In this document: positions 19,164 to 31,991 of the stretch, in pieces
Position numbering within the stretch: the first letter of the stretch is position 1
Layout of the letters: each line of letters begins with the position of its first letter
Source of the DNA: Acidimicrobiia bacterium
Lineage (GTDB): Bacteria > Actinomycetota > Acidimicrobiia > Spongiisociales > UBA5794
DNA: 64,000 bases
Direction of reading: 5' to 3'
NCBI GenBank assembly: GCA_041605955.1
Contig: JBFIXI010000002.1
Coordinates: 19,525-83,524, forward strand
Position numbers and translations under genes: made by a program
Notes under the pieces: model-generated
What the model was told of the DNA's origin: nothing
What the model saw: the letters and a program-made list of their open reading frames with translations, nothing else
The model's database searches: none

Positions 19164-19892
19164 TCAAGTGTTCGCCCGCCACACTGCAACGGGCTCACCT
19201 TCCGAGACGGGCACTCCTCCCGCAATCTCGTTGGTGAGGGCAAACCCCTGCACATTTCCGACGACCTGGAAGGGCGCCTGGTCGGGATTGGCGCCGAGCA
19301 CGCCGGCCGAGATCACCCGGTCGTCCACTATGGCCCAGAGCTGATAGGTTCGCGACGCATCGAGTGTCGGCAGGTTGTCTGCATAGAGAAAGCCGATGCC
19401 ATCTCGACCCACGACGATGCGCGCCTCAACCGGGCTGCCGTCGTTTGCAGTCAACGTGGCGACGATAGCCGTGGGGTCCTCCAGCAGCTCGTCGATGGCG
19501 ACTTCGACTCCCGGGTTCGATCGCTCCGCCAGCAGGCGCAGCACGCTGATCCCCAGGACCGTGACGAGGGCAACCGCGGCGATCGAGAGCGCGGCCGTGA
19601 CGCGCGTCAGGCGGGAGCGGCCTCTTGCCAACGTCGCTGCCGCCGCATTGGGCGGGGGGGAGGTCGAGATCTGCTCGGCTATGTGTTCCCAGACGAGCGG
19701 AGCCGGCGTCGCCGGGGTGGGGTCGACAGCGTGGGCCAGTACAGCCAGCACGGCGCGATGCTCGTCGAGCTCAGCCCGCAATGCGGCGTCGTGGGCCAGC
19801 GCAGCCTCGACCCAAGTACGTTCCGCGGCGTCGACCGAATCCACGGCATAGGCCGCCACCAGGTCGAGCAGCTCGGTTCGCGAGGAGGTCAT
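19164..19892 (-). CDS. Anti-sigma factor (RskA-type, anti-sigma-K-like)
   Basis: N-terminal zinc-less ASD helix 'LLDLVAAYAVDSVD', a TM segment, and a C-terminal RskA-like domain. ATGA overlap with the upstream ECF sigma gene. Confidence 0.6.
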   Translation of the reverse strand: MTSSRTELLDLVAAYAVDSVDAAERTWVEAALAHDAALRAELDEHRAVLAVLAHAVDPTPATPAPLVWEHIAEQISTSPPPNAAAATLARGRSRLTRVTAALSIAAVALVTVLGISVLRLLAERSNPGVEVAIDELLEDPTAIVATLTANDGSPVEARIVVGRDGIGFLYADNLPTLDASRTYQLWAIVDDRVISAGVLGANPDQAPFQVVGNVQGFALTNEIAGGVPVSEGEPVAVWRANT

Positions 19893-20509
19893 GGCATGAC
19901 TCCCGCCGCAGACAATTGGCCTTTGAGGCGCCTCATCCCGGTGCGGATGCGGCTCTTGATGGTGCCCTCGGGCTCGTCGAGCGCGGCCGCGACCTGGCGA
20001 TAGGTGTAGCCGTGGAAATAGGCGAGCTCGATGGCCCGGCGCTCTTGTTCAGCGAGACCGGCAACGGCTTGGCGCACCTTGTCCGACGCAACGTTCGCCC
20101 ACACTTGGCTCTCGATGTCGGGGGGTCGCGGGACATCCATGAACCGCTCCCGCTTCTCGCGCTCCTTGCGCGCCAGCTCGGAGCGAAGCATGTCGATGCT
20201 GCGGCCATGGGTATCGGCCAGCAAGAAGGAACGCACCGCGCCGCGGGCCGGGTCATACCGTTCGGGCCGGTTCCACAAACGGAGGAACACCTCCTGAGTC
20301 ACCTCCTCCGCCATCTCGGGGCTCTTCACGAGCCGCCGGGCGAGCGCGAACACAGACCCTCCGTGGCGATCGTATAGTTCGGAGAGCGCCGCTTCGTCGT
20401 AGCGCGCGACGGCCATCACCAAGCCGGCATCGGACGCTTCGATGCCTCGGGTCCCGCTAAACCGATTATCCGACACTGTGTTTGGAGCCTCTGTGGCAAG
20501 CGCGAGCAT
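19889..20509 (-). CDS. ECF-family RNA polymerase sigma-70 factor (SigK-like)
   Basis: Regions 2 and 4 ('VTQEVFLRLW', 'LAEQERRAIELAYFHGYTYRQVAAALDEPEGTIKSRI'). Start set at an internal Met. The ORF track extends to 20611. Confidence 0.7.
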   Translation of the reverse strand: MLALATEAPNTVSDNRFSGTRGIEASDAGLVMAVARYDEAALSELYDRHGGSVFALARRLVKSPEMAEEVTQEVFLRLWNRPERYDPARGAVRSFLLADTHGRSIDMLRSELARKEREKRERFMDVPRPPDIESQVWANVASDKVRQAVAGLAEQERRAIELAYFHGYTYRQVAAALDEPEGTIKSRIRTGMRRLKGQLSAAGVMP

Positions 20510-20680
20510 GGACGTGACTCTTTTCGGCTGCGACGGTAATACGGAGGTCGGAAGGTTGTCGGATGACGGTCTGCTTCGTCCGACGCGACCAGATGCAGCC
20601 AGGTAGACCAAGACTATGTTGGGGGCATGACAGCAGTCCGGGATACCATTGGATGGCCAACCGGCGGCGAGGTCCGGCCA

Positions 20681-22091: not shown

Positions 22092-23177
22092 TCAGACGTT
22101 GAAACGGAAGCGAATCACGTCTCCCTCTTGGACGATGTAGTCCTTGCCTTCGAGACGCCACTTGCCGGCTGCCTTGGCGCCGGCCTCTCCGCCCAGAGCG
22201 ACGAAGTCCTCGCAAGTCACGACCTCGGCCCGGATGAAGCCTCTCTCGAAGTCGGTGTGGATCAGGCCGGCAGCGCGCAGTGCGGTAGATCCGCGCCGGT
22301 ATGTCCACGCCCTGACTTCTTTCTCACCAGTGGTGAAGAACGTGTTGAGGCCCAGTGCCCGATATGCCGCCCGGACGACCTTGTCGAGACCCGACTCTTC
22401 CAGGCCCAACGCGGCGAGGAACTCCGGGCGATCTTCCGGAGCGAGCTCGGCGATCTCGGCCTCGGCCTTGCCGTCGATCACGACCAGCTCCGACCCCTCC
22501 GCCTCGGCAATCTCGGCTATCGCCGCCAAGGCGTTCTCATCGGCAATCTCATCGATGTTGGCCACATACAGCACGGGCTTGGCGGTGAGCAGATGCAGCT
22601 CTCCGGCGTGAGCCAGCTCCGAGCTCGTCAGCGGAACCGTCCTGGCCGGGTCGCCTGCGCGCAACGCAGCGGCCAGTTTCTCAACTACGCGTCGCGCCGC
22701 GTCCGCGGTCCGATCCCCAGACTTGGCGCGCCGGGCGTGACGTTCGGCGGCTCTCTCCACCGTCGCCAGGTCGGCGATCGCCAGCTCGGTATGGATGGTC
22801 GCGATGTCTTCGACCGGATCGACCCGACCGCCCACGTGGCTCACATTGGGGTCCTCGAAGACCCTCACGACATGGGCGATCGCATCCACCTCGCGGATGT
22901 AGCCGAGGAACTGATTGCCGAGCCCCTCGCCCTGGGAGGCACCGGCTACCAGTCCGGCGATGTCCGTGAACTCGATGGTGGTGGGCACCACCTCCCGGGG
23001 CTGCACGATGGCGGCGATCTCGTACAAACGAGGGTCGGGCACCAAGGCCACGCCCACATTGGGATCGACAGTGGCAAAGGGGTAGTTGGCTGCCACTGCG
23101 CCGGCGGCGGTCAGTGCGTTGAACAGCGTGGATTTGCCCACGTTGGGGAGACCGACGATGCCGCAAGTGATGCCCAT
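22092..23177 (-). CDS. ychF: Redox-regulated ribosome-binding ATPase YchF
   Basis: '[18 protein letters not shown]' P-loop and TGS domain. Full-length, about 360 aa. Confidence 0.85.
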
Positions 23178-23257: not shown

Positions 23258-24451
23258 GTGAGCGCCATGCGGATTGGGGCCGTGGCGCTGGGAGGGCTGT
23301 TCCTGCTGGGTGCGTTGGTAGCGCCCAGTCGGGTAATTGCTGCGCTCGGCGTGGAGGGCCACCCGCGGTGCACGCTCGACGGCGTTGCTGCGGGATATAC
23401 GTGGTGGGCAGACGAAGAGCACGTAGCAATCACCGATGAGCCCGTGCTGGAGTGGAACGGCATGATCGTCGATGCCAACCAGGTGGACTGCTCTGCTGTT
23501 CTCGCGTGCTTGCGGGAACGGCCCGAGATGGCCGGACGCGCCGCCACGATGGTCGGCGGTGACGCGGCCGACCACATCGTCGGAACCAACGGACCGGACC
23601 TCATCGTTGGTGGGCCCGGACCGGATCGCCTGGAGGGGAGGCGGGGCCGCGACACTCTGTGCGGGGGCACCGGTGATGATGTGATCGTTGGCGGTGGGGG
23701 GGCCGACCATCTGTCGGGACGATGGGGTCGCGATGAGTTGCGCGGCGGACCCCGAGACGACCGCATCGACGGGGGCAATGGCGACGATGCACTGTTCGGC
23801 GGGAGCGATCCCGATGTGCTCCTGGGGAGCGCCGGACGCGATGGTTTGTACGGCGGTGACGGAGACGATGTGCTGCGAGGCGGTCCCTCGCGCGATGTGT
23901 GTTTCGGCGAGGGCGGGCTCGATTCGTTTGCTCATTGCAGCGTCGCGGCCGACGACGATGTCCAGTACGGAGCCGGCCCGGTCCACGTCATTCGAGCGCA
24001 AGTCGACCCGTTGCTCGACGAGTCGCTGGCGCAGTTCACCGCCTATGTGGATTGGATCCTGTCCGACCCCCGTAGCTGGCTCGGCGACGGCTCGGTGACA
24101 TGGCGGCGCGTCGGTCCGGACGATCCCGCCGATCTCAGCATCATCTTGGCGGCACCGGAGACCGTCGACGCGATCTGCTTCCCGTTGCGGACCGGCGGCT
24201 ACTTCTCATGTCGCAACGGGGACAAGATCGGCATCAACATCAACCGGTGGAACACCGCCACGGATTGGTGGCCCGTCAGCCTTCACATCTACCGGACCTA
24301 TGTGATCAATCACGAAGTGGGGCACTATCTGGGACACGGCCACGTCAGTTGCCCCGGCGACGGGGAGCTGGCCGACGTGATGCAGCAGCAGACCAAAGGG
24401 CTCGATGGCTGTGTCGCCAACGGGTGGGTGTTCCCGGAGGGTCCACCGTGA
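23258..24451 (+). CDS. Secreted protein: signal peptide, RTX-like beta-roll (about 9 GGxGxDxL nonapeptide repeats), and a C-terminal DUF3152-like zincin domain with HEVGHYLGHGH
   Basis: N-terminal 'MRIGAVALGGLFLLGALVA' signal. Repeats 'GGTGDDVIVGGGGADHLSG...GGNGDDALFGG...GGDGDDVLRGG'. HExxHxxGxxH lies near the C-terminus. Confidence 0.6.
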   Translation: MSAMRIGAVALGGLFLLGALVAPSRVIAALGVEGHPRCTLDGVAAGYTWWADEEHVAITDEPVLEWNGMIVDANQVDCSAVLACLRERPEMAGRAATMVGGDAADHIVGTNGPDLIVGGPGPDRLEGRRGRDTLCGGTGDDVIVGGGGADHLSGRWGRDELRGGPRDDRIDGGNGDDALFGGSDPDVLLGSAGRDGLYGGDGDDVLRGGPSRDVCFGEGGLDSFAHCSVAADDDVQYGAGPVHVIRAQVDPLLDESLAQFTAYVDWILSDPRSWLGDGSVTWRRVGPDDPADLSIILAAPETVDAICFPLRTGGYFSCRNGDKIGININRWNTATDWWPVSLHIYRTYVINHEVGHYLGHGHVSCPGDGELADVMQQQTKGLDGCVANGWVFPEGPP

Positions 24452-24717
24452 GCGATGCCGTCGCCGCCGTTGAGGAGCTCCTTGCCGAGGCCGCCGCGGC
24501 GCATCACGAGGCTTTCAAAGAGACGGACGGGGTCGACCCGGAGTGGCCGTTGTGGTACGCCACATACCTGGCAAGTCGGCTTGGTCCCATGTCCGGTTTC
24601 CGGGGGACGCGATCCGAGCTCGTCTACTGGCTGATCCGGCTGGACCGTGAGTATCGAGAAATCGACTCGGCGGTGCCGTGGACGCGCTTCTATGCGGTCA
24701 GAATCGCCGCGCTTTGA
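24448..24717 (+). CDS. Small hypothetical protein (about 89 aa), translationally coupled
   Basis: Its GTG overlaps the stop of the upstream gene (GTGA) and its own stop overlaps the TTG/ATG of the next ORF. No recognisable family ('DPEWPLWYATYL'). Confidence 0.35.
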   Translation: MSDAVAAVEELLAEAAAAHHEAFKETDGVDPEWPLWYATYLASRLGPMSGFRGTRSELVYWLIRLDREYREIDSAVPWTRFYAVRIAAL

Positions 24718-25706
24718 CTGAGACGCCTCCGGTGGAGCTCAGCAAACTCATCGAGGCGAGCGATCTCGACGGGCTGGTGCGATACGCCGAGCGGCTCGTG
24801 GCGAATCGTGACTGGGCGGGGCTGGTCGAGATGCGCGACCTCTGCCGAGAGGCGACGGGGCGGGGCAAACAGGTGTGGGGGGCCGCCCACTATGCGGAGT
24901 ATCGGCTGGCGCTCGACGGGCCCGCCGAGTACGCAACCGCAGTGATCAAATCGGGTGCCGGCCGCTTTGCCCCCGGCCCACTTTGGGAGGTGGCAGCCTC
25001 GACCCACAGTTGGGATGAGCTCAGCTCCGTCACCGACCCGGCGCTACGCGCCTTGATTGCCCATGAGCGTTTGCTGCGGGGCGACGAGGTCGATGCGGCC
25101 GATGTCGATCGAGCCGTGGTCGATGCCCCGCTCGCCCTTGCCGTATGGGAGCCGGACTATCCCCGAGCGGTGTACCGGTCGGATGGGGCCGACTTTCCCG
25201 AGCTGGAGATCCTGGCACCGGCCGCGTGGGTCGATCTGCCGGCACAGCCGGGCCCTTCCTCGGCTCACACCGATCCGGTGATCGCGTTGCTCGACCTGGT
25301 GGAGCCTTGGCTGGAGAGCTCCAACGGCCGTGGCGAAGGAGTCGCCGTGGAGGGTGGAGGCCTCGAAGCGATTCGGGCGCTGGGACCGCGCCGGGTGCGG
25401 GCGGAGGAAGTCACACTGCGCCAAGCCGTGGCGGTGATGGCATGGACCGGGGCGTCGGGGGGCGCCCATGGGAGACGCCGGGGCACGCCGGTGGGCCGGG
25501 CGCTTGCCCTTTGGGCGGTTGCGGTGATCACCGGGCTGGACGATGCCTGGCCGGTCGATCTAGACGAGCTGGGTGAAGCGGGTTCAGAGATGAGATGGCT
25601 GGTCTGGGACCCGGGCGAACAGGCCGGCGGATGGCACTTCCACCTGGCGGTGGCGGACCCCATGGACGGGCTGGCATGGGCAATCAGTGCAGTGGATGCA
25701 CCCTGA
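24714..25706 (+). CDS. Hypothetical protein (about 330 aa), third member of the coupled triplet
   Basis: Long ORF in the same direction whose start overlaps the stop of the small gene. Its composition looks like coding sequence, but I recognise no domain. Confidence 0.4.
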   Translation: MTETPPVELSKLIEASDLDGLVRYAERLVANRDWAGLVEMRDLCREATGRGKQVWGAAHYAEYRLALDGPAEYATAVIKSGAGRFAPGPLWEVAASTHSWDELSSVTDPALRALIAHERLLRGDEVDAADVDRAVVDAPLALAVWEPDYPRAVYRSDGADFPELEILAPAAWVDLPAQPGPSSAHTDPVIALLDLVEPWLESSNGRGEGVAVEGGGLEAIRALGPRRVRAEEVTLRQAVAVMAWTGASGGAHGRRRGTPVGRALALWAVAVITGLDDAWPVDLDELGEAGSEMRWLVWDPGEQAGGWHFHLAVADPMDGLAWAISAVDAP

Positions 25707-27215: not shown

Positions 27216-27839
27216 ATGCGGCCGAACGTAGAAAGGATGTATGTGGCCGAGAACGCGCCGCCCGGCTGGTACCAAGCCGCGACCGACCCGCCAGGCACCG
27301 AGCGCTACTGGGATGGCAACCAGTGGTCTGCCGACACACGACCGGCGGCCACGTCGCCTGCTGCGCCGCCGGAGGTCGCCACCGGCGATCGGGTCACTCC
27401 TCACGGACGCCAGATCGCCTCGGCCGGATCGCGTATCGGGGCACGGCTCATCGACGTCCTCATCATCGTCCTGATATCGGCGCCGCTCGTATTTCCCAAC
27501 ATGACGATCGAGAACGGTGTCGTCACCTACGAGAACTTTGCGATCCAATGGCTCGTGGCTGCCATTGGTGCGGCCTACGAGATCTTGTTCACCGCGTTGC
27601 GTAGCGCCACCCCCGGAAAGATGCTCGTCGGCATCGAGATAGTGCGTAAGTCCGATGGCCACGTCCCCATCGGCTTTGGCACCGCGGCGCTGCGATGGTC
27701 CCCCAACCTCTTGAACTACGTGGCCACCGGGTTGGGGGGAGTAGTCGTCCTGCTGTCGCTGATCCTCTTGTTTGCCGATCGGATGCGGCGAACGGTATTC
27801 GACTTCGTCGGGCAGACGTTCGTGGTCAGCAAACGCTGA
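27216..27839 (+). CDS. RDD-family membrane protein with an N-terminal DUF2510-like 'GWY...P.GTERYWDG..W' segment
   Basis: R..D..D pattern (RLIDVLI...) and 3 TM helices. Likely start at the internal Met at about 27237. Confidence 0.6.
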   Translation: MRPNVERMYVAENAPPGWYQAATDPPGTERYWDGNQWSADTRPAATSPAAPPEVATGDRVTPHGRQIASAGSRIGARLIDVLIIVLISAPLVFPNMTIENGVVTYENFAIQWLVAAIGAAYEILFTALRSATPGKMLVGIEIVRKSDGHVPIGFGTAALRWSPNLLNYVATGLGGVVVLLSLILLFADRMRRTVFDFVGQTFVVSKR

Positions 27840-27845
27840 CGGGCG

Positions 27846-28502
27846 ATGGCACGTCGCCGCCGTCCTCGGCCAAGGGGCTGGTACGAGAAGCAGGGTGATC
27901 CGCCGGGCACGGAGCGGTTCTGGGATGGGGAGAAGTGGGGCCCCAATCCGCGCTACAAGCGGGGCGCTGCCCCGCCGCCGGCACGGGTGGACGAGCCGGC
28001 CCTCGCCGCGGCCGAGCCGACGCAGAGCACGGTTTGGGCTCGCATCAGCGCCAGGTCGGTAGACACCCTGGTTCTGCTCTTCCCGTGGTACTGGCTCTTC
28101 ACCAGGGCGTTCACCACGGAGGTGGGGGCCGGCGGCGAGGCCGTCACCACAACTCACGCTCTCTACCTGTGGCTGGCCGCCGCCATGGTCATCGCCTTCG
28201 ACGTGGGGTTCACCGCAACCTGGGGGGCGACTCCCGGGAAACGCCTGGTCGGTTTGATGATCGTCGATCGCGACGAACGCAAGAGCCCTCCCGGGTGGGG
28301 CCGATCGATCTTGCGGGCCACCCCGTTGCTGTTGGTGGTGGCGGTGTTGTTGCTGCCCTTGCTGTGGTTGGCCTGCGTGGTCTTCATGTTCGTCGACAAG
28401 AAGCAACGCTCGCTCTTCGACTTGTCAGGTGCAACGTTGGTCGTGATCGATCCGCGTCGCTCCGACCGTCTGGCCCGGCCGCGGAAGCCCAAGGCGACGT
28501 AG
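27846..28502 (+). CDS. RDD-family membrane protein, paralogue of the preceding gene (DUF2510-like N-terminus)
   Basis: Same architecture ('GWYEKQGDPPGTERFWDGEKW', RDD core 'TPGKRLVGLMIV'). Confidence 0.6.
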   Translation: MARRRRPRPRGWYEKQGDPPGTERFWDGEKWGPNPRYKRGAAPPPARVDEPALAAAEPTQSTVWARISARSVDTLVLLFPWYWLFTRAFTTEVGAGGEAVTTTHALYLWLAAAMVIAFDVGFTATWGATPGKRLVGLMIVDRDERKSPPGWGRSILRATPLLLVVAVLLLPLLWLACVVFMFVDKKQRSLFDLSGATLVVIDPRRSDRLARPRKPKAT

Positions 28503-28610: not shown

Positions 28611-31600
28611 ATGACGTCAGCTGCCCGCCACAACGCCAATGCAGCGTTCATCGAAACTGGGCCCCACAATGCAGGGCCCCTAAACGCAGGGGTCCGATAT
28701 GCAGAGCTCCATTGCCACACCAACTACAGCTTTCTCGATGGAGCCTCCCATCCTTTCGAGCTGGTAGCTAGAGCCGCCGAGTTGGGTTATACCGCGCTCG
28801 GCGTCGTAGATCACGATGGCTTCCGTGGCGCCGCCAAGGTTCATCAAGCCGCTGGCCACGTGGGGATGGCTGTGGTCTATGGAACCGAAGTAGGAATGCC
28901 GCCCGATTTCGTCGAAGTCTCGCCATCCCCAGCAGTCGCCGAGCCGGTAGCTCCGTTGTCTCCGCCTTCGCGACGTGGCCGGATTCGTCGCATGCACGGG
29001 TCGAAGCCGGCGACCAAGGCGACCTCTGATCATCTCGTGCTCCTGGCGCCGGATCCGGCCGGATATGCCGCCATCAGCGATTTCGTCACCAAGGGGCAGA
29101 TGCGGGGAGCCAAAGATGCTCCGCGCTACAGCTATGCCGAGCTGGAGACGGCTGCCCGAATTGGCAATCTGGTGGCGCTCACCGGTTGCTGGCAAGGGGC
29201 AGTTCCTCGGGCCGCCCAAGCAGGCGATTTCGACGCCGCGCTGCAGGCGGCCGCTCGACTGCGCAACATCTTCGGCAGTCGTCTCTACGTCGAGCTATGG
29301 CACCACGCCATGCCGGAAGACGATGCTCGCAATGACATCCTCGCCGAAGTGGCGCATCGCCTCGGTTTGGAGACTGTGGCGACCAACAACGTCCACTACG
29401 TCGACCGCTCCCAAGCTGATCTATCCGAGGTACTCGCCGCTATCGGAGGTCGTCGCAACCTGGACTTGGCCGACGGCTTCCGCCCCGCCACCGATGAGCG
29501 TTACTTACGCAGCGCAAGGGAGATGGCGGCGCGTTTTGCCCGTTATCCGGGTGCCGTCGAACGGGCTGCTGAGTTGGGGGCAGAGCTGGCGTTCGATCTC
29601 CAGCTGCTGGCGCCTGAGCTGCCCGACTTCCCGATGCCGGGAGCTTTCACGACCGAAGACGAGTACCTCCGTCAGCTCGTGCTCGACGGGGCTCGCCGGG
29701 TATATCCCGGTGATGGCCCCGGCGGCATCGAGCGGCATGCGCTGGATCGGATCAATCACGAGCTGGAAGTCATCGAAGAGCTCGGCTTCGCCGGCTTCTT
29801 CCTGGTGGCCTGGGACATCGTCCAGTTCGCCCGCAGCCGCAACATCTACTGTCAGATACGCGGCTCGGGAGCAGATTCCGCCATCTGCCGCTGCATCGGG
29901 CTCACTCGCGTCGATCCCATCCGGCTCCAGCTTCCGTTCGAGCGGTTCCTCTCGTCCGAGCGGGGTCGACCGCCCGACATAGACATCGATTTCGAGGCGG
30001 AGCGCCGCGAGGAGGTCATTCAGTACTGCTACAGCCGATACGGCCGAGAGCGAGCCGCCATGGTGGCCAACGTCATCACCTACCGGGCTCGCTCGGTGCT
30101 CCAGGACGTGGGCAAGGCTTTCGGGCTCACCCAGGCGCAGGTCAACGCTCTCACCAAGTATCTCGACAGCCGCAGCCCCCGCCATCTACGGGAAGAGCTC
30201 AACCTCCCGGCGGGACTGACGAGTGAGCTGATCTACGACGTGTGCTGGCGCCTCGACGGCTTCCCGCGCCACCTCGGCATCCACTCCGGGGGGATGGTCG
30301 TGGCCAAGCGGCCGCTGTGGGAGGTGGTGCCGATCGAGTGGGGCCGGATGGAGGACCGTACCGTGTTGCAGTGGGACAAGGACGATTGTGCCGTCATGGG
30401 CATCGTCAAGTTCGATCTGCTGGCTCTGGGGGCGATGAATGGTCTCCACTTGACGGTCGATGCCATTCGCGAGGCTCACGGCGTCGACATCGATCTGGCA
30501 ACGATTCCGCAAGAGCCGGTGATCTACGACATGCTGACCCGAGCGGACACCGTAGGCATCTTCCAGGTCGAATCGCGCGCCCAGATGGCAACGCTGCCCC
30601 GGATGAAGCCGAAGACCTTCTACGACTTGGCGGTCGAGGTGGCGTTGATCCGTCCCGGCCCCATTCAGGGCCACTCCGTGCATCCGTACCTACGGCGGCG
30701 TAACGGAGAGGAGCCGGTGCGCTATCCCCACCCCCTTGCCGAGCCGATCTTGAAGAAGACGTTGGGCGTGCCCGTCTTCCAGGAGCAGTTGATGGAGCTG
30801 GCGCGGCTGTGTGCCGGTTTCAGCTCGGGGCAGTCTGATCGGCTACGCCAAGCGATGACACACAAACGTTCCGACGAGGCGATGGCCGAGCTCCGCGACG
30901 AGGTCTATGCCGGGATGGCGCGCAACGGGGTGACCGGCAGTGCCGCGGACGAGATCTGGGAGAAGCTGCAGGGGTTCGCCTCGTTCGGCTTTCCAGAGTC
31001 GCACTCGGTGTCGTTCGCCTACATCGTCTATGCCGCCTCGTGGTTGCGCTACCACTGGCCGGCCGAGTTCCTGATGGGCCTACTCAATGCCCAGCCGATG
31101 GGCTTCTATTCACCGCACACTCTCGTCCAAGACGGCATTCACCATGGGGTGATCGTGCTGCCTCCCGATGTCAACCACTCCCAATTCGACTGCACCATCG
31201 AGCATGTTCGGGCCGATCCGAACGACATTGCTGAGTATCTCGGACTTAGGTGGCGGCGGGGGAGGGGCGCCATCGACGATCCGGTGCGCGCCGCCGTTGC
31301 AGTGCGCATCGGATTGCGCTACGTGCGCAACCTCGGGGATGCCGAGATCACTCGTATCGAGGCCGCCCGTCGTGTCGCCGGGCCGTTCACCAGTCCCGAG
31401 GATCTGGCGCAGCGCACCGGTCTGCCGCTCGACGCACTCGAGGGATTGGCAGCGTCCGGTGCGCTGCAATCGCTCGACTTGGAGCGTCGGGAGGGGATCT
31501 GGGCTGCTGGAGCCCTCGCTGAGCTCGGTCCCGATCGGCTGGCGCTCGCGCCAGGAGCCCGCCCGCCCGAGCTGGCCGAGATGGATCGCTACGAGCGGGT

Positions 31601-31991
31601 GAAGGCAGACTTGTGGTCGACGTCGCTCTCTGTGACGCATCCAGTCTCGTTCATCCGCAACGAGCTGACCGCGGTGGGATGTCTGACGATTCAACAAGCC
31701 CTCGAGCTGCGTAAGCACGGCACCAAAGCGCGCGTCGGTGGATTGGTGACTCACAGACAACGTCCCGGCACGGCCAACGGGGTGCGGTTCCTCAACCTCG
31801 AGGACGAGACGGGCCTGCTCAACGTCGTCGTGCTTCCCCCGGTATGGGACGCCAACTATGAGATTGCTCGCAAGTCGATCGGAGTAGTCATCGAAGGGGT
31901 CCTCGAATACCGCGACGGGGTCACCAACTTGGTCTCGCATCGGTTCGAGGATTGGCCGGTACTGGCGGTGAAGTCCCGGGACTTCCGCTAG
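28611..31991 (+). CDS. dnaE2: Error-prone DNA polymerase III alpha-like subunit DnaE2 (ImuC)
   Basis: PHP domain 'YAELHCHTNYSFLDGAS', a pol III alpha core, and a C-terminal OB fold. About 1100 aa. LexA box upstream, with imuA'/imuB in the window. Confidence 0.8.
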   Translation: MTSAARHNANAAFIETGPHNAGPLNAGVRYAELHCHTNYSFLDGASHPFELVARAAELGYTALGVVDHDGFRGAAKVHQAAGHVGMAVVYGTEVGMPPDFVEVSPSPAVAEPVAPLSPPSRRGRIRRMHGSKPATKATSDHLVLLAPDPAGYAAISDFVTKGQMRGAKDAPRYSYAELETAARIGNLVALTGCWQGAVPRAAQAGDFDAALQAAARLRNIFGSRLYVELWHHAMPEDDARNDILAEVAHRLGLETVATNNVHYVDRSQADLSEVLAAIGGRRNLDLADGFRPATDERYLRSAREMAARFARYPGAVERAAELGAELAFDLQLLAPELPDFPMPGAFTTEDEYLRQLVLDGARRVYPGDGPGGIERHALDRINHELEVIEELGFAGFFLVAWDIVQFARSRNIYCQIRGSGADSAICRCIGLTRVDPIRLQLPFERFLSSERGRPPDIDIDFEAERREEVIQYCYSRYGRERAAMVANVITYRARSVLQDVGKAFGLTQAQVNALTKYLDSRSPRHLREELNLPAGLTSELIYDVCWRLDGFPRHLGIHSGGMVVAKRPLWEVVPIEWGRMEDRTVLQWDKDDCAVMGIVKFDLLALGAMNGLHLTVDAIREAHGVDIDLATIPQEPVIYDMLTRADTVGIFQVESRAQMATLPRMKPKTFYDLAVEVALIRPGPIQGHSVHPYLRRRNGEEPVRYPHPLAEPILKKTLGVPVFQEQLMELARLCAGFSSGQSDRLRQAMTHKRSDEAMAELRDEVYAGMARNGVTGSAADEIWEKLQGFASFGFPESHSVSFAYIVYAASWLRYHWPAEFLMGLLNAQPMGFYSPHTLVQDGIHHGVIVLPPDVNHSQFDCTIEHVRADPNDIAEYLGLRWRRGRGAIDDPVRAAVAVRIGLRYVRNLGDAEITRIEAARRVAGPFTSPEDLAQRTGLPLDALEGLAASGALQSLDLERREGIWAAGALAELGPDRLALAPGARPPELAEMDRYERVKADLWSTSLSVTHPVSFIRNELTAVGCLTIQQALELRKHGTKARVGGLVTHRQRPGTANGVRFLNLEDETGLLNVVVLPPVWDANYEIARKSIGVVIEGVLEYRDGVTNLVSHRFEDWPVLAVKSRDFR

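Follow-up and report, generated by a model that had tools for sequence, protein, structure and literature searches.

Layout of the gene 1, ORF2 and ORF3 locus

We analysed a stretch of 64,000 nucleotides from an Acidimicrobiia bacterium (contig JBFIXI010000002.1, positions 19,525 to 83,524 of the forward strand), hereafter called the window. Between positions 23,258 and 25,706 it carries three tightly packed genes on the same strand, namely gene 1, which encodes a protein with a predicted signal peptide, a beta-roll and a metzincin-like DUF3152 domain, and two open reading frames (ORFs), ORF2 and ORF3. A sequence-only reading of this DNA had proposed that the tight coupling marks a functional module, for example a protease with a chaperone or an inhibitor, or a toxin with an immunity protein. 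We find that each of the three genes occurs without the others and that ORF2 and ORF3 carry no export signal and match no family of the proposed partner types, and we consider it probable that the three simply lie side by side in a conserved part of the chromosome, most likely sharing one transcript, and do not form a dedicated functional system. The features of the locus, in window coordinates, are as follows.

22092..23177, minus strand: ychF, ribosome-binding ATPase (ORF list; Pfam MMR_HSR1 and YchF-GTPase_C on the identical locus)
23258..24451, plus strand: gene 1 ORF from the alternative upstream start GTG 23258, 397 aa (ORF list)
23267..24451, plus strand: gene 1, exported beta-roll and DUF3152 metzincin-like protein (predicted), 394 aa (ORF list, calls in public assemblies, Pfam)
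23267..23347, plus strand: predicted Sec-type signal peptide of about 27 residues (hydrophobicity, leader kept in homologues)
23348..23554, plus strand: short N-terminal Cys-containing region (C35, C75, C81) from the leader to the repeats (alignment, Cys positions)
23555..23932, plus strand: beta-roll of 14 tandem nonapeptides (register, Pfam HemolysinCabind, sequence matches in PDB)
23936..24448, plus strand: DUF3152 domain, putatively catalytic, metzincin fold
24311..24343, plus strand: HEVGHYLGHGH zinc-binding motif, HExxHxxGxxH (read from the sequence)
24436..24440, plus strand: GGAGG, Shine-Dalgarno-like, 7 nt 5' of the ORF2 GTG and within the end of gene 1 (sequence)
24448..24717, plus strand: ORF2, 89 aa, start GTG 24448 overlapping the gene 1 stop (homologues, assembly calls)
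24732..25706, plus strand: ORF3, 324 aa, start GTG 24732 (homologues, assembly calls)

Gene 1 is called as a 394-residue protein from ATG 23267 in public assemblies of this organism (L001-L003, at 100% identity), and its homologues agree with this start. Its stop codon and the start of ORF2 share four nucleotides (GTGA, 24448-24451), an overlap that the sequence-only reading had described correctly and that is preceded by the GGAGG element. A four-nucleotide overlap, either ATGA or GTGA, is also found at the gene 1/ORF2 junction of four related loci (L005, L006, L008, L097). The same reading had placed a second overlap at the start of ORF3, with a TTGA at the ORF2 stop and a product of roughly 330 residues. 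The TTGA is present in the sequence, but the corresponding start, TTG 24714, is unsupported: database lengths, close relatives and the alignment of N-termini favour GTG 24732, the start used in the public assemblies, at which the homologue N-termini line up. The resulting 324 residues are the length of most database copies of ORF3 (one Logan copy, P0476, has a call of 330 aa), and a spacer of 14 nt separates ORF2 from ORF3; in the closest relatives ORF3 starts with an ATG 8-15 nt past the ORF2 stop.

No terminator-like site was found on the plus strand within the region, nor were any Rfam families or tRNAs. No sigma-70-like promoter was found there either, by a scan that covers the promoters of this organism poorly. 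The four-nucleotide overlap, the 14-nt spacer and the lack of a plus-strand terminator-like site make co-transcription likely, and the three co-directional genes are probably read as one transcript. The G+C content is 63-69% throughout the window and does not shift at the locus.

Domain content and conservation of the three proteins

The N-terminus of gene 1, MRIGAVALGGLFLLGALVAPSRVIAALG, looks on inspection like a typical Sec-type leader. Hydrophobicity averaged over 19 residues is highest here (Kyte-Doolittle value 2.0, from residue 11), neither a twin-arginine motif nor a lipobox was found in it, and the alignment shows that it is conserved among homologues. The mature protein contains 10 Cys, and the short Cys-containing region that follows the leader (C35, C75, C81) is likewise conserved in homologues with the same architecture. 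The sequence-only reading had counted about nine calcium-binding nonapeptides of the repeats-in-toxin (RTX) type. Nine repeats do match the loose pattern GGxGxDxLx, but the array is more regular than this count implies, with 14 nonapeptides of the form D-x-[LIV]-x-G-G-x-G-x following one another in a perfect, unbroken nine-residue register (residues about 97-222). In Pfam the array matches HemolysinCabind in four stretches (E 7e-24), and in a sequence search of PDB it matches the RTX blocks of CyaA (E 1.6e-33), family I.3 lipases and serralysins.

Substrates of type I secretion leave the cell with the C-terminus ahead, and their C-proximal RTX block folds upon meeting calcium. Gene 1 does not fit the hallmarks of a type I substrate, namely an uncleaved C-terminal signal after the repeats, the absence of an N-terminal leader, and linked ATP-binding cassette (ABC) and membrane fusion protein (MFP) genes: its repeats are N-terminal and preceded by the hydrophobic leader, its domain with the probable disulfides is C-terminal, and within the 64-kb window no ABC or MFP genes adjoin it, its neighbours being ychF, ORF2, ORF3 and the LLM and ACT genes. 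Judging from the leader, we infer that the protein is exported through Sec. The combination of a signal peptide, RTX repeats and a metzincin-like domain had been called unusual for a Gram-positive bacterium, with no type I context; it is uncommon but not unprecedented, since Linhartova et al. had already noted in 2010 that RTX proteins occur in Actinobacteria lacking type I secretion genes (PMC3034196).

The C-terminal part of gene 1 matches DUF3152 (PF11350) in Pfam with 103.7 bits against a cut-off of 25.1 (E 1.4e-29, residues 258-383), so that the sequence-only description of gene 1 as a signal peptide, a beta-roll and a metzincin-like DUF3152 domain, with HEVGHYLGHGH as its zinc motif, is borne out. 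The residues N-H-E-V-G-H..G..H are invariant in sets of 28 and 45 homologues, four Cys that probably form two disulfides are invariant across DUF3152 homologues, and an invariant Met, a candidate for the Met-turn of metzincins, lies 13 residues past the third His (VMQQQT), a spacing about as described for snapalysins (PMC3890501). We modelled the C-terminal 171 residues from an alignment of 44 plain DUF3152 proteins, with a predicted local distance difference test score (pLDDT) of 94.1, and the top structural match of the domain was snapalysin (4hx3). The confident model together with the invariant zinc motif, Cys and Met indicates that, as modelled, the DUF3152 domain is a metzincin-like zincin of small size whose shape comes closest to that of snapalysin. 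Membership of M7 or M10 was not found by sequence in Pfam, NCBIfam or PDB, and Pfam Peptidase_M10 reached only E 0.25. These features point to the gene 1 product as a putative extracellular zinc metalloprotease. We found no tested function in the literature for any DUF3152 protein; the only mentions of Mycobacterium tuberculosis Rv3207c are in computational screens for adhesins and vaccines.

The RTX-DUF3152 architecture recurs in about 45 database proteins, down to about 41% identity, and all of those with a source name or a locus that could be read come from Acidimicrobiia-type metagenome-assembled genomes (MAGs). Other Acidimicrobiia combine DUF3152 with wall-anchoring SLH repeats instead of a beta-roll, and Micromonospora, Streptomyces, Pseudonocardia and other genera commonly have plain DUF3152 proteins, 230-300 aa in length. 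In one close relative (L004, positions 1148-1477; MAG contig CAMYJM010000551.1) the gene 1 match ends at an early stop codon after 78 residues of the catalytic domain, representing either a pseudogene or an assembly frameshift. A distant RTX-DUF3152 gene (L095, positions 73-2293), with no ORF2 or ORF3 nearby, is convergent with, and slightly overlaps, a second RTX-repeat gene of 329 aa.

ORF2 and ORF3, for which the sequence-only reading had named spurious frames of a high-GC genome as a refuting outcome, both belong to large families. For ORF2 a word-indexed search gave 87 homologues, and a profile search of clusters at 50% identity gave 1172 representatives at E <=1e-3 and 580 at E <=1e-10. 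An HH pair, G, D, W, Y and SELV are invariant in the family (HH..G.D..W..Y..SELV). ORF2 matched nothing in Pfam, NCBIfam or PDB; its sequence looks helical, and the sole weak hits in PDB are designed helical repeat proteins. It is acidic, free of Cys and without a hydrophobic segment, which points to a cytoplasmic protein. Longer family members are fusion proteins that also contain YjeF_N (three cases, with either domain first), DinB, GNAT, glyoxalase/VOC or glutaredoxin/GST_N, and these fusions explain why several small proteins of the family carry the JGI name 'NAD(P)H-hydrate epimerase'. The family (proteins P0328-P0475) looks to be a small, as yet undescribed domain accessory to cytoplasmic enzymes of repair and detoxification. 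As separate genes, its members have contexts without relation to proteases: they overlap a glycogen-debranching-enzyme gene at its end, upstream of transketolase (L084), lie between DUF1684 and YjeF_N (L087) or stand alone (L086). Overlap with the end of an upstream gene is seen with glycogen debranching (L084, 5001-5013), DUF1684 (L087, 5001-5013 and 5288) and an LLM oxidoreductase (L076, about 5741), which argues that a start/stop overlap is customary for this small gene, or for these compact genomes, and no mark of partnership with the protease.

ORF3 has more than 1700 homologues. Its mean column identity is 68% (21 sequences, 57-76% identity), with conserved motifs RGKQ[VL]WG, GPLWEVAAS.H and GASGGA[YH]GRRRGTPVGR. 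The protein is acidic and has neither a hydrophobic leader nor a membrane segment, consistent with a cytoplasmic location, and both ORF2 and ORF3 contain at most one Cys. The check for signal peptides and membrane segments that the sequence-only reading had proposed for the two proteins thus came out negative for both, as judged by hydrophobicity. An AlphaFold2 model of ORF3 (pLDDT 91.4) shows helical repeats on the N-terminal side and an alpha/beta part on the C-terminal side, and no match was found in PDB by fold or by sequence. The Gly/Arg-rich loop GASGGA[YH]GRRRGTPVGR, very conserved and located in the least confident segment of the model, may be a ligand or nucleic-acid site. In Pfam, weak matches to DUF6183 (PF19681), over residues about 90-290, were obtained for 14 of the 21 close homologues (best 35 bits against a cut-off of 26.6, at least two homologues above it), and NCBI names some ORF3 homologues DUF6183 family protein; the window protein itself gave no match at E up to 1. 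ORF3 is therefore best called a distant relative of DUF6183, as far as profile matches to its homologues can tell, and a literature search found nothing on this family.

Gene order across Acidimicrobiia and the relationship between the genes

A scan with the ORF3 profile, one genome per species, found relatives in 285 genomes. We compared gene order in the best 80 loci of these (L004-L083), nearly all labelled as Acidimicrobiia or Actinomycetota MAGs, by searching them with all neighbouring proteins of the window and with a hidden Markov model (HMM) of ORF2. The stable feature is that ORF3 adjoins ychF divergently, with both genes visible in 65 loci. The gap between them is often only 50-190 nt; it measures at most 250 nt in 28 of the 65 loci, 251-1000 nt in nine and more than 1 kb in 28. 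The larger gaps contain purU, a kynureninase-like gene, typA, a gene for a 680-aa SLH protein or membrane protein genes, and in the window gene 1 and ORF2 occupy this position. Across lineages the space between ychF and ORF3 behaves as a variable slot, with the protease gene among its contents, and ORF3 itself is a vertically inherited core gene of Acidimicrobiia.

The full triplet is confined to the clade of the window, being found in L004-L008 (ORF3 71-74% identical), in L097, where gene 1 is 55% identical, has the same four-nucleotide overlap and is followed by ORF2 and an abutting ORF3, and in L089/L090, where gene 1 is 49% identical and ORF2 is recognized by its HMM at E 2e-22. In a second clade the order is ychF, purU, gene 1 and ORF3 without ORF2 (L023, L058, L061, L091, L096). 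A third pattern has ORF2 ahead of ORF3 without gene 1; ORF2 follows an LLM gene in L076, and a membrane-protein gene lies between ORF2 and ORF3 in L055. In a neighbour-joining tree of ORF3 the three states fall into three separate groups, and about 65 of the 80 loci have neither gene 1 nor ORF2. Where gene 1 is lacking, ORF3 retains 52-63% identity. Conversely, gene 1 relatives occur without a neighbouring ORF2 or ORF3 as RTX-DUF3152 (L092, L095), DUF3152 with SLH (L093) and plain DUF3152 (L094) genes.

The sequence-only reading had named lack of conservation of ORF2 and ORF3, or loss of synteny, as evidence against a module; what we found is that both are conserved and that, among close relatives, gene order and the four-nucleotide overlap are kept down to 49-55% identity of gene 1. 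However, this clade is collinear over a whole 10-kb neighbourhood, which runs from the extracytoplasmic function (ECF) sigma/anti-sigma pair, udk, an SGNH hydrolase gene and ychF to the LLM oxidoreductase, ACT, two RDD genes and dnaE2, so that vertical descent by itself predicts a conserved order within the clade. At one edge of the block, the ECF-type sigma factor gene lies on the minus strand at window positions 19889-20611, with an RskA-type anti-sigma gene next to it in relatives. Towards the other, two tandem RDD-family membrane protein genes followed by a gene for a 1126-aa DnaE2-type polymerase (PHP/DNA_pol3_alpha) occupy positions 27216-28502 and 28611-31991; the RDD-RDD-dnaE2 arrangement is kept in relatives, and the first RDD gene carries DUF2510 at homologous loci.

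Several points for a partnership come from the same comparison and weigh against our interpretation of the genes as mere neighbours. The four-nucleotide overlap between gene 1 and ORF2 is kept in the window, L005, L006, L008 and L097, as coupling between partners would look; 11 of the 13 other RTX-DUF3152 genes with a visible downstream neighbour sit directly upstream of ORF2-ORF3 or ORF3, four of six among those that were sampled via gene 1 itself; and ORF2 neighbours ORF3 in two further lineages without gene 1. In addition, no tested function was found in the literature for any member of DUF3152, DUF6183 or the ORF2 family, so that functional independence is argued from distribution and localization, and the neighbour-joining tree is poorly resolved at depth, which leaves loss and gain indistinguishable.

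A true functional operon within the clade, in which ORF2, ORF3 or both either regulate production of the gene 1 protein or work on it in the cytoplasm ahead of its export (perhaps as a holdase that prevents the precursor from folding or becoming active), would account for these points: the triplet with its overlap is kept from 100% down to 49-55% identity of gene 1, the majority of the RTX-DUF3152 genes seen lie directly upstream of ORF3, no plus-strand terminator-like site interrupts the region, and ORF2 and ORF3 are adjacent in two lineages without gene 1. We nevertheless regard such an operon as unlikely, because ORF3 persists at 52-63% identity in about 65 of the 80 species loci from which gene 1 is missing, the ORF2 family is found mostly in other contexts and in fusions, RTX-DUF3152, SLH-DUF3152 and plain DUF3152 genes are monocistronic elsewhere, and the 10-kb collinearity predicts the conserved order by itself. 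It is tempting to speculate that the N-terminal beta-roll is a calcium-driven folding ratchet for an N-terminus-first Sec export, with ORF2, perhaps together with ORF3, handling the precursor in the cytoplasm; this idea, which would give first functions to three uncharacterised families if true, we hold to be rather improbable.

The more specific partnerships fare worse. ORF2 has a suitable size for a proteinaceous metzincin inhibitor like Inh/AprI or sermetstatin that protects the cell from its own protease (89 aa, about 10 kDa), and it lies directly 3' of a beta-roll metzincin gene, in the manner of the inhibitor present in serralysin operons (PMC3034196); snapalysin, the top structural match of gene 1, also has a protein inhibitor (4hx3). 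Known inhibitors of this kind are, however, exported with a signal peptide (PMC3034196), whereas ORF2 has neither a leader nor Cys, and no Inh or SSI match was obtained in Pfam or NCBIfam for ORF2 or 39 of its relatives. Given also its helical appearance, with weak PDB matches only to designed helical repeat proteins, and a family that is fused to cytoplasmic enzymes and occurs without any protease gene, an inhibitor role is very improbable. We attach just as little credence to a polymorphic or contact-dependent style system in which gene 1 encodes a secreted toxin to which ORF2 or ORF3 confers immunity, a notion encouraged by the RTX repeats known from toxins and by the small ORF tightly downstream. 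PADLOC and immunity families gave no match and PHROGs none that was significant, and no variable toxin tip, secretion-system genes or signs of mobile elements lie nearby, in a setting of flat base composition. ORF3, with its 68% mean column identity and vertical inheritance as a core gene, is unlike a variable immunity gene, and the family of the catalytic domain is widespread in Actinobacteria, with M. tuberculosis Rv3207c among its members.

Taken together, the occurrence of each gene without the others, the cytoplasmic location suggested for ORF2 and ORF3 as opposed to the export predicted for the protease, and the lack of any inhibitor, secretion chaperone, immunity or defence match for ORF2 and ORF3 in PADLOC, PHROG, Pfam and NCBIfam argue against the dedicated module that the sequence-only reading had proposed. 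In the arrangement of independent neighbours that we favour, the gene 1 protease would leave the cell by its Sec leader, its 14-repeat beta-roll would bind calcium and fold outside, and the C-terminal snapalysin-like metzincin domain, with its HExxHxxGxxH motif, conserved Met and two probable disulfides, would perform catalysis. Because it directly follows the leader, the beta-roll would be the first part to emerge from the Sec channel and may therefore serve as a calcium-triggered folding nucleus or stabilizer. ORF2 would be a small, helical cytoplasmic protein whose family is elsewhere tied to repair and detoxification enzymes, above all YjeF_N, and ORF3 a DUF6183-like cytoplasmic protein beside ychF in nearly all sampled Acidimicrobiia. 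Gene 1 and ORF2, the latter a copy of a promiscuous small gene, occupy the variable gap between ychF and ORF3, an arrangement that was then probably inherited vertically within one clade. The locus also carries a caution, in that tight spacing and a start/stop overlap in a compact, high-GC genome marked, on this account, no dedicated module.

Comparison with known systems

The two downstream genes are by-products of this analysis, in that ORF2 represents a large family outside Pfam and ORF3 is very conserved and positionally tied to ychF. Compared with DUF6183 (PF19681), the Acidimicrobiia ORF3 group forms a distant branch of very high conservation, with no relative among solved structures. 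Plain DUF3152 proteins (PF11350) share the catalytic domain of gene 1 at 40-56% identity (Micromonospora, Streptomyces, Pseudonocardia, Brevibacterium) and the same invariant motifs, whereas most of them are 230-300 aa long, lack RTX repeats and begin with an N-terminal region of low complexity. Gene 1 could yield the first activity for this family, of which M. tuberculosis Rv3207c is a member.

Snapalysin, the small neutral protease of Streptomyces (MEROPS M7), is likewise a small secreted actinobacterial metzincin. Its third zinc ligand is Asp (HExxHxxGxxD), whereas the corresponding position in gene 1 is His. The DUF3152 domain is about 40 residues longer and contains four invariant Cys; snapalysin has no beta-roll, and the likeness is structural only, no sequence-level match having been found in PDB or Pfam. 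The short C-terminal subdomain and the conserved Met after the third ligand described for snapalysin (PMC3890501) resemble what is seen in gene 1.

Serralysins (MEROPS M10B), such as the Pseudomonas alkaline protease AprA and Serratia serralysin, combine the same HExxHxxGxxH metzincin and calcium-binding RTX beta-roll in one secreted polypeptide, and the RTX block of gene 1 matches serralysin chains by sequence. The NCBIfam Zn_serralysin model, however, reaches only 38 bits against a cut-off of 500, and on the repeats only; the catalytic domain of gene 1 is half the size, probably contains two disulfides and resembles snapalysin more closely. Its beta-roll precedes the metzincin domain, the reverse of the serralysin order, and a Sec-type N-terminal leader takes the place of the C-terminal type I signal, with no adjoining ABC or MFP genes. 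By analogy, since the C-proximal repeats of type I-secreted serralysins exit first, the N-terminal beta-roll of gene 1 may mirror their behaviour in Sec export. Gene 1 may thus be seen as a natural variant of the serralysin design, a beta-roll and a metzincin in reversed order behind a Sec leader in a monoderm, and could be used for asking whether calcium-triggered folding of a beta-roll aids export outside type I secretion.

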